A stretch of DNA of 48,323 nucleotides from a virus. Taxonomy: Duplodnaviria > Heunggongvirae > Uroviricota > Caudoviricetes. This document shows, in pieces, positions 30,414 through 37,027 of this stretch. The translations under genes and the position numbers were made by a program. Position 1 is the stretch's first letter, and the number at the start of each line of letters is the position of its first letter. Where the stretch lies: IMG/VR virus record IMGVR_UViG_3300031419_000007. One strand, given 5' to 3'. The notes beneath the pieces were generated by a model. The model saw nothing but the letters and a program-made list of their open reading frames with translations. It searched no databases and had not been told where the DNA came from.

Positions 30414-30646
30414 TGCCAACTCTTGATGATGTAATGGCCAAACTGGAAGATATCCATTCCGATGTAAAAAAGGGTCTGGACTTCCTGTCCGAACTGCAAG
30501 GAGCCGCAATGGGTTCCTGGCAGTGGGACAAGAAAGCCGGCATTCTCCGCATGTACAATACTGAAGGGACAGAAATCGGGATCTTCTCCGTTTCTGACTC
30601 GCCAGATAAAGCCATGCGGGAACGCCGTACAGACCTGGAATCTTAA
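30413..30646 (+). CDS. Hypothetical protein (77 aa)
   Basis: TAATG coupling with the upstream gene; its stop overlaps the convergent E1 stop (TTAA). Confidence 0.7.
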   Translation: MPTLDDVMAKLEDIHSDVKKGLDFLSELQGAAMGSWQWDKKAGILRMYNTEGTEIGIFSVSDSPDKAMRERRTDLES

Positions 30647-31686
30647 CGGATACCCAGGATAGTAGCCATCTGCGGGGAAACTCTTTCGAGCGTACCCGCT
30701 TCAAGCATATCATTTACCGATTTCACAATCGGATCCCAGAACTCTTCCTCAGACGAATTGTAGGCCGAATTCATCGTACGCGTTGATACGGGATACGCAC
30801 GGACATCTTCATCCGGTTCCAAACGATGGCGGTTACCGGTCAGCACGCCTTCAATCCAGTCACGATCCAGACGCGTCTGGTCGTTCCCGTTATGAATATC
30901 GTAGAACCAGGTTTCCACTTTGATCGGCATCATCATGTAAATGTTCTGAAAGACAGAGAACATCGACATCGCCATGACCGCATTCACTGCTGCCGTTTGT
31001 TCCAGGTCCGCACAGGAAGCATCTGGGTCACCCTGGTAGCCAGAGGAACGCAGGTACTCCGCCATCGGACACGGAATGTAAGGCAGAGGGATGTCGGCAT
31101 TGGCCGCTTTCTGCACCAGACGGTTGAGGATATCCAGATCCGCATCGGTATCCCGACGGGACAGCACACGGGACGAATACACACGGGTTTGACCGAAGGT
31201 GTTCTCGTTACCGGCATCCACGATCAGATGCTCAATACCCGAACGCAGCGTCGACATCAGGATCGATTGGATGATCTCAAAGCGAGCCTTCATGTTATCA
31301 ACACACAGGAAAATGGTTGATGGACGGTCGGTTACCAGACGCTGGAAGTTTTGGGGAACGTGGTTGGAAAGCCAATGGGACCAGTTATCCGAATCCCGGA
31401 AGTAGTGCGGGATGCACACAATCGGGAGTTCGAATGCTGCACCGTAACGTTCAGCCAGACATTCAGCCTTGTTACGGCCCACGTCGTCCACGATGAAGTT
31501 CTGACGGGTGAGGTTTTTGACTTCCACCTCGTCGCCGTCGATGAGAGTCATGGTGGGGACCAGATCGTTCCACTGACCGCGGGACATAATCTGGCCGAGC
31601 ATTGGCAGTAGGCGGCCACCGGTGCCGCCACAGCCTACCACCACCACATTATTCATAATCTGACGGTTTTTGTAGGAAAACATCAT
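30643..31686 (-). CDS. ThiF/MoeB-family E1-like Ubl-activating enzyme (PRTRC ThiF-like)
   Basis: VVVGCGGTGG nucleotide-binding loop; IDGDEVEVKNLTRQNF; VGRNKAECLA; CVDNMKAR; DAGN; candidate catalytic Cys in ASCADL followed by QTAAVN. Confidence 0.92.
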   Translation of the reverse strand: MMFSYKNRQIMNNVVVVGCGGTGGRLLPMLGQIMSRGQWNDLVPTMTLIDGDEVEVKNLTRQNFIVDDVGRNKAECLAERYGAAFELPIVCIPHYFRDSDNWSHWLSNHVPQNFQRLVTDRPSTIFLCVDNMKARFEIIQSILMSTLRSGIEHLIVDAGNENTFGQTRVYSSRVLSRRDTDADLDILNRLVQKAANADIPLPYIPCPMAEYLRSSGYQGDPDASCADLEQTAAVNAVMAMSMFSVFQNIYMMMPIKVETWFYDIHNGNDQTRLDRDWIEGVLTGNRHRLEPDEDVRAYPVSTRTMNSAYNSSEEEFWDPIVKSVNDMLEAGTLERVSPQMATILGIR

Positions 31687-32891
31687 GCACTCCGAATGTC
31701 GTAATCTTTGTTTAAACGCTCGATAACCTTACGAGCTTCGCTTGCCGTGGTGACCACGAAGACGCCTTCCTGGAACAGGACTTCGTTATCGACGACGCTT
31801 TCAGCCAGGCGTTTTGCAACGGCAGCATTCAGTTCGTCATCTTCTTCGTTGTACACCTGGGCCACCAGCTCGTCGGCGGTCTCATCCCAGGACATGTCCG
31901 GGTCAATACCGAGGCTCAGTAAGTTGCTTCCACGGAAGTCCGGATCCAGAAAGTCTAGCGCTTGAGATCGCGCGGCCCCCGTGTCCGACGGGTGCTCTTC
32001 CGCGTCCTGTCCCTGAAATCGGGCATTCCAATCGGCGATACCCTCCTCCGCTTCTTCTTCAAACTGGCTTAACCTTCTTGAGCCAGCGCCGGCAAGTGAT
32101 CCACCACCGAACACTTTCGAGCCATTGCCTGTCGGGCTCCGGTAGTTGTAAGCTGGAATTGCTGGAGCCGTGTAGCGTTGAATCTCCACGTTTCCCATCC
32201 AGCCTTCCACTTCCGGGGATACCGACTTTTCCGGCGTTGCGAAGAAGTCCTCCAGATTCAGGTTCGGCACCTTGTCTTTGTACGCGTTGAAACGCCAGAT
32301 GACTTTCGGAGAGTTGGTATCCAGCTTTCCAGCGACACCGGAGATCCCGGCGTAGGTCTTGTCGTCATTCTCATCAGTGCCGGAGAAGAAGGCATCCATG
32401 GAGTTGTGCGAGTGGATGTCGAGGATAACCTCTTCGTCCGCCGCCACGTGCGACCAGTCGTACGCCACACGGGCCTTCGACACTTTCTGCGTTGGGATGG
32501 CCACGCGGTAAGATTCGGTGGTTTTGTTCCAGACGATGTGAGCCATGGCTTCATAATCACCGTGGCCGGTACCGTTTGGTGGAACCATCGCCATCACTTT
32601 CTTAAAGAACCCCAGGATATCCGTCAGCATCTGCACCGGAATCTTCTGGTTGTTCACCAGCGGGTTCAGGTAAGGCTTCAGCTTGGACGCACCCAGTTTG
32701 ATAGGCAGCTCACCGACTTTGACCAGTGAAGAACGACCGAGGGAGAATTCATTGTAGCGGTACACTACGCCATCTTTAGCCAGGATGTGAACAATCGGAT
32801 CTTGCAGGAAGTTGCCGCCTTCAAAGTAGGCATCTTCACTGACCAGGCAGTTCATGAAAGGGACCAGCTGCATTACGCCATTAGTGCTCAT
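31683..32891 (-). CDS. JAB/MPN metalloprotease (PRTRC protein A-like) with an acidic C-terminal extension
   Basis: Upstream Glu in YEAMAHIVWN, then DIHSHNSMDAFFSGTDENDD (HxH-x7-S-x2-D JAMM motif). Confidence 0.9.
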   Translation of the reverse strand: MSTNGVMQLVPFMNCLVSEDAYFEGGNFLQDPIVHILAKDGVVYRYNEFSLGRSSLVKVGELPIKLGASKLKPYLNPLVNNQKIPVQMLTDILGFFKKVMAMVPPNGTGHGDYEAMAHIVWNKTTESYRVAIPTQKVSKARVAYDWSHVAADEEVILDIHSHNSMDAFFSGTDENDDKTYAGISGVAGKLDTNSPKVIWRFNAYKDKVPNLNLEDFFATPEKSVSPEVEGWMGNVEIQRYTAPAIPAYNYRSPTGNGSKVFGGGSLAGAGSRRLSQFEEEAEEGIADWNARFQGQDAEEHPSDTGAARSQALDFLDPDFRGSNLLSLGIDPDMSWDETADELVAQVYNEEDDELNAAVAKRLAESVVDNEVLFQEGVFVVTTASEARKVIERLNKDYDIRSA

Positions 32892-33670
32892 TCGTTATCT
32901 TCCTCTTCATCATCGTTATCGTTGTCATCTTCGTCCAGTTCATCTGGGCTCTCGGTGACGGCAGTTGGGTAACCTGGCAGAATCCCGAACGGGAACGCCT
33001 CTTTGTCTTTCAGGTAGCTGAACAGCTGGCTTGGAGACCAGCCGTCACGGGTGCGGGTGCCCAGGTCGTCGTTGAACGGCGAGGCCAGCAGCACGTGGTG
33101 ATACACTTCGTTCAGACCACGAAGATCGGTGTCATACAGCGTGCGATAGGAGTTCGCACCGACGCACATGTTGCCGTCACCATACTGGTTCGGGAAGGGC
33201 AGTGCCCACAGACGGTTACGGTGGTTCTGAGCATTGGTCCCCCAATCGTCCAGACTTGGCACCTCATCCTCTTTGTAATCCGTGCAGAACCACTTCACCT
33301 GCTCCAGGGTCCAGCGGTTGTTGTTACTGTTGTGGTTGAGCTTGCAGAAGATCACCGTCGGCGGCACCGGGCAGCGATACGTACCTTTGCCCCCACGGGA
33401 ACGGTTCGGTGCGTACTGCAGGTCGGCGATACGCTCTGGGAAATACAGCAGCAGCTGCAGTTCCGTACGGGAGCTCTTCATGGCCACGGTTTCGCTCGGC
33501 AGACGGAACGAACGCGTAGGTTCACGTTCCTGAGCCGCTTCCCCGGAGACAACCCGATCAAGCTCAGCCTTGAAGTCACCCATCGAGATATTTTTGAAGG
33601 CACCCTGGCCGTTCGGGACGCGAACGTGGTTTTCATACAGGGTGATCTGGATTCCTGAATTGTTACTCAT
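32888..33670 (-). CDS. Prokaryotic E2-like conjugating enzyme, family D (PRTRC protein B-like)
   Basis: PVPPTVIF...LWALPFPNQYGDGNMCVG (candidate catalytic Cys)...LASPFNDDL; acidic tail; adjacent to JAB and E1. Confidence 0.82.
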   Translation of the reverse strand: MSNNSGIQITLYENHVRVPNGQGAFKNISMGDFKAELDRVVSGEAAQEREPTRSFRLPSETVAMKSSRTELQLLLYFPERIADLQYAPNRSRGGKGTYRCPVPPTVIFCKLNHNSNNNRWTLEQVKWFCTDYKEDEVPSLDDWGTNAQNHRNRLWALPFPNQYGDGNMCVGANSYRTLYDTDLRGLNEVYHHVLLASPFNDDLGTRTRDGWSPSQLFSYLKDKEAFPFGILPGYPTAVTESPDELDEDDNDNDDEEEDNE

Positions 33671-33912
33671 ACGTAGTTGATCCTCGTACGAATTGCGGTG
33701 TATGGCCCAAAGTTGAACTCCATTGGGTTACGGCGGCGGCCGCTGTCCGGTGGGTTACGGGTCGTACGGAAAGTGATGTTACGCAACATCATCATGCGTT
33801 GAAGCGGGGTGGTTTCCGGATTCAGCAATTGACGCTGCAGTTCTGCCATGACGACGGGACCGCTAGCTACGATCTCGCGGGCGTTCTGGAGCCCTTGTAA
33901 TAGATCTTGCAT
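33667..33912 (-). CDS. Hypothetical protein (81 aa) in the Ubl cassette
   Basis: SD AGGAG that can pair with the downstream CTCC; ATGA overlap with the E2 gene. Confidence 0.6.
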   Translation of the reverse strand: MQDLLQGLQNAREIVASGPVVMAELQRQLLNPETTPLQRMMMLRNITFRTTRNPPDSGRRRNPMEFNFGPYTAIRTRINYV

Positions 33913-34868
33913 ACGGAGAATGCTCCTAACTGTTTGAGAACATGAACGAAAGTGTCGAGATACTCGGTGACCACCGGTGTGTAGTTCATACTCTGAGCCT
34001 CTCTTGCACGCTGGTTCGGTTGAACCTCAGTCTCTACTCGAGTTAAGGGACTGAAAGCGTCATAGACGAAAGCTAAGGATACGACCAGAGCACGGTAGCG
34101 TGTTCCGCGGTGTTGGCGAATAACCCGGTCATCCGAAACGGACCACGTCGGTTTAGTTGCCGCAGCAATCTCTTCCAAGTGATCAAACGTTTTCGGACAA
34201 TAGACCAGACGGACACCATGACGAATGGCCATGCTGTCAATATAACGAAGGTAACGGCGGACCAATGGCGTGTCTTCTAAGTACACGCTGTAGGTTCTGA
34301 CGCGGTCGGCCGGGTGTGCAGTAGACAGAAGCGTGTGATACGTTCCGGTCTCTGCTTCGGTGTAGACCAACTCGTCATCCTGGAAGTGGTTATAGTCGGC
34401 GGAAGCGATGGTATTATCGTTCCCGTTGATATGCAGTAGCGTGCGGATCGGATGTTTGATATCCTTGTGCACGAACTGCATCATCAACTCGAGCATGCCG
34501 TTAACGCTTTCACCGCCACGACGAGAGAATGCGGCCACGACAGAACGATTATCGTGCTGGACGTACGGAACCATTTTCTCTTTGAAGAGGGCCGAGTTCA
34601 ACTGATCGGCAGCCGTGTTCAGGTAAGAGAACCAGTGGCCGAGAGTGTTCAGGTTGGAAGCCGTTTCTGCTCCCGAGATAGCCCCGAACGCGTCGTCGAC
34701 GTCGGACTGCGGGTGTACGGTGCCGCTGGGATTGACTCGCGTGCCCAGGCCCACCTGGCCCAGAGACTCGAGGACCTGTGCAGCTCGATGGTCTTCGGGA
34801 TCCATAGGTTGGATGGCCATGTTACGGAATATCGTGCCGGCGGCGGAGGTGAAGAGTAAGTGGGACAT
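33867..34868 (-). CDS. Hypothetical protein (333 aa) in the Ubl cassette, between Ubl and E2
   Basis: Strong SD GGAGG; no motif recognised. Confidence 0.75.
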   Translation of the reverse strand: MSHLLFTSAAGTIFRNMAIQPMDPEDHRAAQVLESLGQVGLGTRVNPSGTVHPQSDVDDAFGAISGAETASNLNTLGHWFSYLNTAADQLNSALFKEKMVPYVQHDNRSVVAAFSRRGGESVNGMLELMMQFVHKDIKHPIRTLLHINGNDNTIASADYNHFQDDELVYTEAETGTYHTLLSTAHPADRVRTYSVYLEDTPLVRRYLRYIDSMAIRHGVRLVYCPKTFDHLEEIAAATKPTWSVSDDRVIRQHRGTRYRALVVSLAFVYDAFSPLTRVETEVQPNQRAREAQSMNYTPVVTEYLDTFVHVLKQLGAFSVCKIYYKGSRTPARS

Positions 34869-34884
34869 AAATCCTCCAGTAACT

Positions 34885-34913
34885 AAAAAAAGAAAAGGAG
34901 CCCGAAGGCTCCT
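34885..34913 (-). terminator. Intrinsic terminator directly after the Ubl gene
   Basis: Minus strand aggagcc-ttcg-ggctcct-tttcttttttt. Confidence 0.85.
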
Positions 34914-34935
34914 CTTTTTAGACTAAGCCTTTGGC

Positions 34936-35319
34936 TTAGCCTTTAGTACCGGTACGGCGGGTAAAGTAGATGTGACGTACGCCGTCAACTTCTTCTTCAC
35001 GAGCGTCCATAGAAGCGGTCTGGAAAGCTGAGTCGAACTGACGCGCTGCGTCTTCTTTGCTCAGGTCCATACCGTCCAGAGTACGCGGATCGCGGCCCGG
35101 GATGTGAACTACAGTGGAGTTCGCGCCTTTGGTGCCGGTGCGGCGGGTAAAGTAAATGTTGCGAACGTTACCGACCACTTCTTCGCGAGCATCCATAGAT
35201 GCAGTCTGGAATGCTGAGTCGAACTGACGTGCTGCGTCATCTTTGCTGATATCCATACCGTCGAGGGTACGAGCGTCACGGCCAGGAATGTGAACAACGG
35301 TAGAAGTGATAGTCGACAT
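34936..35319 (-). CDS. Tandem di-ubiquitin-like protein (two PRTRC protein C/Prok_Ub-like units, each ending RRTGTKG)
   Basis: SD AAGGA before ATG 35319; 65 + 62 aa units; C-terminal GTKG as in PRTRC protein C; first gene of the E2-JAB-E1 operon. Confidence 0.85.
   Translation of the reverse strand: MSTITSTVVHIPGRDARTLDGMDISKDDAARQFDSAFQTASMDAREEVVGNVRNIYFTRRTGTKGANSTVVHIPGRDPRTLDGMDLSKEDAARQFDSAFQTASMDAREEEVDGVRHIYFTRRTGTKG
34939..35304 (-). repeat. Intragenic tandem duplication (186-bp period)
   Basis: The two 60-aa cores are identical at 53 of 60 positions, with many synonymous DNA differences. Confidence 0.95.
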
Positions 35320-35380
35320 CGGGTGTTTCCTTGTAGTTAAAAGTTTAGTTTTTACGGTGGTAGTATTCTTCACCACAGTT

Positions 35381-35428: not shown

Positions 35429-37027
35429 ATGAAAAAAGCTACTTCGAGTCAATTGGCGGCTGCCTTGCTCGAACTGAAGGGGAAACCCATCGATTTCGAC
35501 AACTATCGGCCGTTCCGAAAGATCTACGATATCGATCCTGACATCATGGTGTTCAAAGCTGGACGCCAGATCGGGAAGTCAGTTTCACTCGGCGGACGTT
35601 TAGTGTCGAAGAGTATCGGCCGTGCGTACTTCAACTCACTGTACATCGCTCCGTTCCAGATCCAGGCGAAGCGTTTCTCAAACGCCTACCTTGACGCCTT
35701 CCTGGAATCGCCGCTCGTGAAGAAGTACTTCCGTAAGACGAGTGACACGAGCAACGTGTTCGAGAAGACTTTCTCTAACGGCTCAAAGATTTACCTGTCG
35801 TACGCTCAGACCGAATCTGACGCCGACCGCATCCGTGGTCTGATGGCGGACCTGCTGACCGTCGACGAAGTCCAGGACGTCTCGTATGACGCACTGCCCC
35901 CAATCTTCGAAATCCTGAACGCCTCGGAATACGCCCTGAAGGTCCTGGCCGGCACGTCCAAGTCTTCGGCGAACACCTTGGAGCAGCTGTGGCTCCGTAC
36001 CAACCGTCTGGAGTGGGCCACCAAGTGCACCCACTGTAACCACTGGGTCATCCCGCGGGATTACGAGACGTGCATTGCGATCTGTAAACCTCAGGGCCCA
36101 TCCTGTGACAAGTGCGGCGGGTTGATCGACGTCGGTACCGGCCAGTGGATTGCCACGAACCCGAGCATCAAGAACCGTGTGGGCTTCCACCTTCCGCAGC
36201 TCATCGTGGGCGATAACTGCCGTCCGAAGAAATGGGCTCGTCTGGTCGACAAAGTGACTCAGGCCCAAGAAGGCGGTCTCTATACGCCGGCCACGTTGGC
36301 CAACGAAGTGTTTGGTCTGGCGACGGACCTCTCCGGTCGTTCCCTGTCGATGCAGGAAGCGATGAACTGCTGTGTTCCCGAGTGGAAAGGCTGGGCGTCC
36401 CCGACCGACTTCTCGAACAAAGTCTGGGCCGCGATTGCCCCGACGATCACCCGTACTGTTCTGGGCGTCGACTGGTCTGTTACCGGTGGCGTTAAGTCCT
36501 ATACTGTTGCCTCCGTTCTGGGGTATGATGGGTACGGTAAATGCTACCTGCTTGAATCCCGCAAGATGCAGGGTATTCACATTCTGAACCAGGTAGAGGA
36601 AGTTTGTAAGCTTGCCCTGAAGTGGAACTGTGCGATCGTCGGTTCTGACCGCGGCGTCGGTGTTCTGCAGGGACAGTTGATGCAGAAAGAATTGGGCCAC
36701 AACAAAGTCATCATGATCAACTACGTGGCGGCCAAGAAGCGTCTGCGTTGGGATGGTGAAGGTCAATACCTCGCAGCCGACCGCTCACAGGCGATCGACA
36801 ACGTGATGATGAAATGGCGTCTCGGCCAGCGTTCTTTCGTAGCGCCGTGCTGGGAAGTGACCGAAGGTATGTGGACGGATGCGTTGAACGTGTTCGAAGA
36901 AGAGACTAACGTGGGTCGCCGCGTGTACCGTCACCACCCGGATGAGCCGGATGATTGGATGCACTCTGTGGTATTCGGCAACGTTGCCTACCAATACCTG
37001 AGCGGTGATTTCTCGTATACTGAGTAA
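35429..37027 (+). CDS. terL: Terminase large subunit
   Basis: Walker A KAGRQIGKS, Walker B LTVDEVQD, coupling motif AGT, Zn ribbon (CTHC...CDKC), nuclease motifs GVDWS and PDDWMHS. Confidence 0.9.
   Translation: MKKATSSQLAAALLELKGKPIDFDNYRPFRKIYDIDPDIMVFKAGRQIGKSVSLGGRLVSKSIGRAYFNSLYIAPFQIQAKRFSNAYLDAFLESPLVKKYFRKTSDTSNVFEKTFSNGSKIYLSYAQTESDADRIRGLMADLLTVDEVQDVSYDALPPIFEILNASEYALKVLAGTSKSSANTLEQLWLRTNRLEWATKCTHCNHWVIPRDYETCIAICKPQGPSCDKCGGLIDVGTGQWIATNPSIKNRVGFHLPQLIVGDNCRPKKWARLVDKVTQAQEGGLYTPATLANEVFGLATDLSGRSLSMQEAMNCCVPEWKGWASPTDFSNKVWAAIAPTITRTVLGVDWSVTGGVKSYTVASVLGYDGYGKCYLLESRKMQGIHILNQVEEVCKLALKWNCAIVGSDRGVGVLQGQLMQKELGHNKVIMINYVAAKKRLRWDGEGQYLAADRSQAIDNVMMKWRLGQRSFVAPCWEVTEGMWTDALNVFEEETNVGRRVYRHHPDEPDDWMHSVVFGNVAYQYLSGDFSYTE

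Follow-up and report, generated by a model that had tools for sequence, protein, structure and literature searches.

A phage gene encoding two head-to-tail ubiquitin-like units is a candidate polyubiquitin-style precursor

The locus described here raises the question of why a phage gene should encode two small, nearly identical ubiquitin-like (Ubl) units in head-to-tail fusion, both with the same glycine-terminated tail, and whether its product is cut into monomers or used whole. The gene lies in a 48,323-nucleotide stretch of DNA (which we call the window); the virus record to which it belongs is complete at 176,323 bp and has direct terminal repeats. Its 127-aa product consists of two 62-aa units, and its features are as follows.

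35319..34936, minus strand: di-Ubl gene, 127 codons and a TAA stop, the start fixed by the N-termini of homologues
35125..35319, minus strand: unit 1, residues 1-65, ending RTGTKG
34939..35124, minus strand: unit 2, residues 66-127, RTGTKG and then the stop codon
35122..35127, minus strand: predicted processing site Gly65-Ala66, linker absent, proposed from the motif census and the unit model
34916..34893, minus strand: intrinsic-terminator-like hairpin with a 10-bp stem, UUCG loop and T-run

Tandem Repeats Finder reports a period of 186 nt over the gene, with 1.9 copies, 81% matches and no indels, and a separate repeat search returned two 180-nt copies at 34939-35118 and 35125-35304. The 60-aa cores of the two units are identical at 53 of 60 residues and both end in IYFTRRTGTKG; translation and repeat searches thus bear out the two units, their identity and their shared tail as the first-pass annotation had read them from the letters. 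An AAGGA Shine-Dalgarno sequence about 8 nt 5′ of ATG 35319, together with more than 20 homologues of 65-67 aa that start at the equivalent Met, supports this ATG, and not the upstream GTG at 35376, as the true start. At the other end the gene closes with GGC TAA, so Gly127 is the last residue and the distal Gly is, as had been claimed, already exposed. We also note that on the minus strand the frame directly past the TAA reads A-K-G-L-V-stop (34918-34938), and that the DNA there contains a 12-nt near-duplicate of the end of the Ubl gene (AAAGGCTAAG / CCAAAGGCTTAG), which may be left over from an ancestor that was capped or longer, or from slippage.

Both units are under purifying selection. 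They differ at 35 bases, 28 of them at codon position 3, and the Nei-Gojobori comparison of unit 1 with unit 2 gives pS 0.61, pN 0.062 and dN/dS 0.05; this is the calculation that the first-pass annotation had proposed for its view that divergence is mostly synonymous and that both copies are constrained, and the view holds. Four of the seven amino acid differences do fall within EEVVGNVRN versus EEEVDGVRH, as it had noted, and unit 1 is the more derived copy, carrying five of the seven differences when compared with single-unit relatives. The same pattern recurs in other members of the family. The cores of L004, a close relative, match each other at 60 of 60 residues with about 21 synonymous differences (pS 0.48, dN 0), and dN/dS is 0.02 between the units of L012, 0.07 between units 2 and 3 of L013, and 0.03-0.13 among units 2-4 of L014. 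With pS at least 0.40 in every unit pair compared (window, L004, L012, L013, L014), near-identical protein units with strongly diverged synonymous sites are found in five lineages. Near-identical protein units with diverged synonymous sites are the signature described for eukaryotic polyubiquitin loci.

The unit itself is confidently predicted to adopt a minimal beta-grasp fold. Although AlphaFold2 gave an unusable model of the 127-aa protein from the single sequence (pLDDT 44.6), a 46-row alignment of single units, from which the Vibrio phage D181 units were left out, gave a unit model with pLDDT 88 and pTM 0.70. The model runs strand-strand-helix-strand-strand and ends in a flexible six-residue stretch, RTGTKG. 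Structural similarity is weak, with no Foldseek match to the PDB at E <= 0.001 and a best VIA Z of 5.4, but beta-grasp proteins make up most of the top VIA and Foldseek rows: GB1, protein L, ubiquitin-fold, UBX, Fubi, MoaD, ISG15, FAT10 and SUMO. Searches with the Ubl found no PHROGs match and no ubiquitin-family match in Pfam, where KH_DTX3L and LigB appeared as noise, both below cutoff. The sole recurring family is PRTRC_C (TIGR03738) or Prok_Ub (PF14454), matched by 3 of 46 units. The window protein itself scores 14.9 bits against PRTRC_C (E = 0.021, cutoff 45.95), a weak match at the C-terminal end of the profile; its 4-unit relative P0020 scores 71.5 bits (4.6e-20), above the cutoff, in four stretches. 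We read the unit as a minimal beta-grasp Ubl that is a distant relative of PRTRC_C, the window protein lying below the curated score for membership.

The Ubl gene is the first in a run of genes on one strand in the order Ubl, unknown, unknown, E2-like, JAB, E1, and the large terminase (35429-37027) is transcribed divergently. The genes that follow the Ubl are these.

33867..34868, minus strand: 333-aa protein with no family match
33667..33912, minus strand: 81-aa protein with no family match, overlapping the 333-aa gene
32888..33670, minus strand: E2-like protein with a weak Prok-E2_D match and invariant Cys169
31683..32891, minus strand: JAB/JAMM peptidase related to PRTRC protein A
30643..31686, minus strand: ThiF/E1-like adenylating enzyme related to PRTRC ThiF

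The matches behind these assignments are E = 0.0018 to Prok-E2_D for the E2-like protein (below the curated cutoff), 3e-7 to Prok-JAB and 1.6e-20 to PRTRC_A for the JAB (the latter below its curated cutoff), and 1e-12 to ThiF and 3.3e-15 to PRTRC_ThiF for the E1 (the latter again below its curated cutoff). In alignments of each enzyme with its counterparts from Salmonella phage Arash, Vibrio phage D181 and two contigs of metagenomic or genomic origin (four homologues per enzyme), the catalytic motifs are intact. Cys169 of the E2-like protein is invariant and lies in LPFPNxYGDGNMCxG; in the JAB, Glu114, His160, His162, Ser170 and Asp173 of the JAMM site are invariant; and in the E1, a 347-aa protein with one ThiF domain, the SCAD cysteine (Cys225) is invariant. 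The GCGGTG loop of the E1 is present in the four full-length homologues (as GAGGTG in L014), and the D181 ORF lacks the region. The hairpin lies about 20 nt past the Ubl stop codon, and a terminator at this place fits a modifier that is made in excess over the enzymes.

The same order (poly-Ubl, two further genes, E2-like, JAB, E1) is found in Arash (L001), D181 (L002), L013 and L014, and a gene at the position of the 333-aa protein, likened to it by position alone, is present in the Arash, Vibrio phage, L013 and L014 cassettes. Some side observations concern these cassettes. The annotated E1 ORF of D181 (L002:11297-12263) is without the GxGxxG region at its N-terminus, and the gap of about 230 nt before it contains a tiny opposite-strand ORF, and in L013 (12854-13378) the JAB and E1 genes are separated by a gene for an HNH endonuclease; there may be homing-element or intron activity inside the cassette. 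L014, from the Enterococcus sp. 4E1_DIV0656 assembly, carries a 4-unit cassette on a 216-kb contig together with ParA, DNA polymerase III alpha subunit and NADAR genes, and this contig probably represents a jumbo phage or a phage-plasmid that was assembled along with the bacterium.

Among known systems the gene set matches PRTRC (NCBIfam TIGR03735-03738), which corresponds to operon type 6d, described with a single small Ubl by Iyer, Burroughs and Aravind 2006 (PMC1779556). PRTRC/6d and the phage cassette have in common a small Gly-terminated Ubl, an unknown protein that evolves fast, an E2-like protein, an N-terminally extended JAB and a single-domain ThiF-type E1. They differ in that the phage cassette resides in lytic-type phage genomes of about 165-230 kb and not in plasmids or ICEs, that all the window proteins score below the curated cutoffs, and that the phage Ubl is a tandem repeat with a tail on every unit whereas 6d has one small Ubl. 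Judged from these sequences, the cassette probably works like PRTRC/6d and is distantly related to it.

The Bub (6E) and Bil systems are alike in a more general way, being prokaryotic Ubls of 1-3 beta-grasp domains with E1, E2 and JAB genes adjoining and a JAB that trims after a conserved Gly, exposing the C-terminus (PMC11601596, PMC10557695). In both, the domains form one modifier with the conserved Gly at its C-terminal end, and tails on inner domains are not reported; it is these descriptions that set them apart from the phage protein. Bub uses Ser/oxyester chemistry and has the DUF6527 protease BubE and Ubl-E2 or E2-E1 fusions (PMC11601596). The phage operon proteins gave no match to DUF6527, their genes are separate and unfused, and the invariant E2 Cys implies Cys and not Ser chemistry, so we reject an identification as Bub. 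We likewise reject Bil, whose E1 is multidomain (IAD-AAD-CYS) and whose di-beta-grasp Ubl has just one Gly, at the C-terminus, since the phage E1 is single-domain and both Ubl units carry the Gly tail. Iyer et al. 2006 described the 6e “polyUbl” proteins as reminiscent of polyubiquitin (PMC1779556), and later work treats them as single multi-domain modifiers (10.1101/2024.11.21.623966). A literature search of incomplete coverage turned up no description of a phage poly-Ubl in which every unit has a tail.

How far the repeated tail is a property of the family was judged from a census. An exhaustive HMMER search of 1.84 billion representative proteins gave 21 relatives; further single- and multi-unit clusters were added by profile searches of a 5.8-billion-protein collection, and phage records were added for Arash, three Vibrio phages and three Bacillus jumbo phages. 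A word-indexed search with one P0020 unit found no matches. The family is rare, and it was seen only on phage-sized contigs. The unit count across homologues, which the first-pass annotation had proposed to compare, runs from 1 to 5: among 75 proteins, 24 have one unit (as well as P0025, which was mis-parsed), 10 have two, 35 have three, two have four and three have five, the 5-unit protein of a Bacillus phage being read by eye beside that last count. This protein, gp211 of vB_BceM_WH1 (L015:6824-7723), has five units, each about 57 aa long and with KVQAGTKG at its end. Two candidates were not kept. P0022 (1185 aa, E = 1.6e-4), with 144-aa repeats containing RTGTAG, was rejected as a relative on the grounds that the motif is not at the unit ends and the domain scores are about 5 bits, and P0010 (93 aa) was set aside because it is Arash-like for 53 residues and unrelated after that, probably as a frameshifted or chimeric call.

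Our preferred reading, which we hold with moderate confidence, is that the gene encodes a ubiquitin-like modifier of the phage as a polyubiquitin-style precursor, cut by the JAB into monomers that are conjugated by the E1 and E2. One translation would yield two beta-grasp units, and the JAB of the operon would cut the Gly65-Ala66 peptide bond to release 65-aa and 62-aa monomers with a free C-terminal Gly. The ThiF-like E1 would then adenylate this Gly, and the modifier would be passed to the invariant Cys169 of the E2-like protein and from there to target proteins, which may belong to the phage or to the host. With its tandem units and with a terminator behind it, the gene would supply modifier at a higher dose relative to the enzymes.

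Of these steps the cut is the one on which the family-wide comparison bears most. The main competing reading, which we consider rather unlikely, is that the protein stays uncleaved as a two-domain modifier in the style of ISG15, FAT10, Type I Bil or Bub Ubl2/Ubl3, attached through Gly127 alone, its internal tail kept as an inter-domain linker or as a second E1 or JAB binding site. Bacterial Ubls with two or three beta-grasp domains are indeed common and are treated as single modifiers (10.1101/2024.11.21.623966), and with the distal Gly already free the phage protein could be activated without processing. Against this stands the conservation of the internal tails, which is at least that of the terminal ones: xGTKG is kept at 96 of 98 internal unit ends (90 of them TGTKG) and at 72 of 75 terminal ends. 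Homologues with a degenerate internal GTKG, which the first-pass annotation had named as evidence against its proposal, are thus the rare exception, which speaks for that proposal; the two wholly degenerate units, which have no tail (P0004 unit 4 and P0007 unit 3), count against it. The sole invariant columns of the unit alignment, G59, K61 and G62, also lie in the tail. Nor is there a fixed spacing, since the linkers between units vary freely from 0 to 58 residues in length, and the P1′ residue past the internal Gly is A, N, Q, S, T, H or W.

The linkers of the 3-unit relatives speak for the uncleaved protein, as they hint at a possible function of the whole polypeptide. A marine 3-unit subfamily (P0003, P0006-P0009, P0012, P0016 and P0017) has semi-conserved linkers. 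We note that its unit 1-2 linker resembles (D/N)(I/V)N(I/V)..GD(L/V)x(I/V)N and that between units 2 and 3 a stretch like an amphipathic helix leads into a long acidic tract. Such linkers may have a function of their own; after cutting they would stay on the next unit, and they do not look like a simple spacer.

A further indication of cutting comes from the C-termini. Residues past the last Gly are found in 25 of the 75 proteins, as extensions of 1-20 aa (A, K, EA, DA, ND, ALA, INYSK and one 20-mer among them), and the vB_BceM_WH1 protein has 15. Such extensions block adenylation, so a protease that cuts just after GTKG must exist in those systems, and the motif stands in the same sequence context at the internal junctions as at these tailed C-termini. 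There is precedent in bacteria, where the JAB BubCD cuts the peptide bond of a BubAB fusion right after the conserved Gly (PMC11601596) and Type II Bil Ubls have up to nine residues past the conserved Gly (PMC10557695). Against cutting, the junction in the window protein has no linker, and strand 1 of unit 2 begins only about 3 residues past Gly65 in the unit model; the peptidase is here assumed to reach the Gly65-Ala66 bond. On the present evidence, cleavage by the JAB at this bond to give two activatable monomers is the most likely mechanism.

The history of unit number also agrees better with dosage than with a fixed two-domain architecture, as the number floats between 1 and 5 even among close relatives. 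The closest relatives of the window protein, those of the Arash-like phages (about 172-183 kb), are mostly single-unit, with about 20 single-unit clusters versus four dimer clusters and L004. A single unit is thus enough for function, and the dimer of the window appears to be a variant in dosage. A maximum-likelihood tree built on 54 units places the last units of nine different multi-unit proteins in a single clade (support 97/88), which indicates that the multi-unit state is old in the marine branch and that the internal tails were nonetheless retained; in the same tree some first units group across proteins (93/92), and units cluster within the protein for the window, P0014, P0017, P0019, P0024 and P0020. 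In the dimers of the Arash-like clade (P0001, which is the window protein, P0076-P0078 and L004), both units share lineage-specific residues, which could reflect either one old duplication with co-evolution or repeated duplication. The dS values between the window and L004 slightly favour pairing of unit 1 with unit 1 and unit 2 with unit 2, over 43 synonymous sites only. Unit 1 of these dimers repeatedly differs at the turn between strands 3 and 4, where DGVRH is replaced by GNVRN, GGVRN or GGVRH, whereas elsewhere the two units co-vary from phage to phage. Unit 1 could have subfunctionalised, or both units could be co-evolving with the enzymes.

That the units are no protein modifiers at all, and instead E1-activated carriers (ThiS/MoaD-style sulfur carriers serving nucleic-acid or cofactor modification of the phage, the Gly tail thiocarboxylated or unused) or structural/decoration repeats, we regard as very improbable: a ThiF-type E1 beside a small Gly-ending beta-grasp protein is a sulfur-transfer layout too (Iyer et al. 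2006, PMC1779556), and a homologue in one Bacillus phage bears the annotation of virion structural protein, but each cassette also has a JAB and an E2-like protein with an invariant Cys, which sulfur carriers do not need, and the operon proteins scanned include no rhodanese, sulfurtransferase or biosynthetic partner. The annotated homologue is the vB_BceM_WH1 gp211 described above, and we found no basis for this label.

Returning to the precursor that we favour, its likeness to eukaryotic polyubiquitin (UBB/UBC/UBI4) is one of design. Both have spacerless head-to-tail units with an activatable Gly tail on each, a variable number of units, in some members a short cap past the last unit, and protein identity between units that is held while synonymous sites diverge. 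Unlike ubiquitin, the phage unit is a minimal 60-aa beta-grasp with no detectable sequence homology to it and a GTKG tail in place of LRGG, and unlike eukaryotic polyubiquitin its presumed processing enzyme is a JAMM metallopeptidase of the same operon.

The cultured relative Arash is informative here. In its record (OQ632216) the deposited CDS gp251c (72 aa, L001:102-320) is in the wrong frame; the true gene (L001:107-307) encodes a 66-aa single-unit Ubl that ends TGTKG-stop. The window has a 62-aa TTG ORF that overlaps the Ubl gene in another frame (35109-35297, minus strand), and it is most likely spurious, the counterpart of the mis-called Arash CDS. Because of the mis-annotation, the published virion proteomics of Arash could not have detected the Ubl, and the Arash paper does not mention a Ubl system (PMC10585845). 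Its list of structural proteins comprises 116 proteins and includes RNA polymerase and ribonucleotide reductase (PMC10585845). We considered the “structural protein” labels on the Arash E1 and E2-like proteins as evidence of a place in the virion, and rejected them as such.

More broadly, we judge the chances to be about even that large phages independently evolved the polyubiquitin design, with an array cut by a JAMM peptidase and phage E1 and E2 proteins that tag virion or host proteins during infection. To our knowledge, studies of ubiquitin-like conjugation in bacteria have until now dealt with it as a defence against phages (CBASS Cap2, Bil, Bub). Salmonella phage Arash, as a cultured single-unit relative (S. 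Typhimurium ATCC 14028), offers a tractable model for the PRTRC/6d class. If the proposal is true, ubiquitin-like machinery would be part of the equipment of the phage, with tagging done by the virus rather than against it, and there would be a genuine polyubiquitin-type precursor outside eukaryotes that bears the same evolutionary signature.
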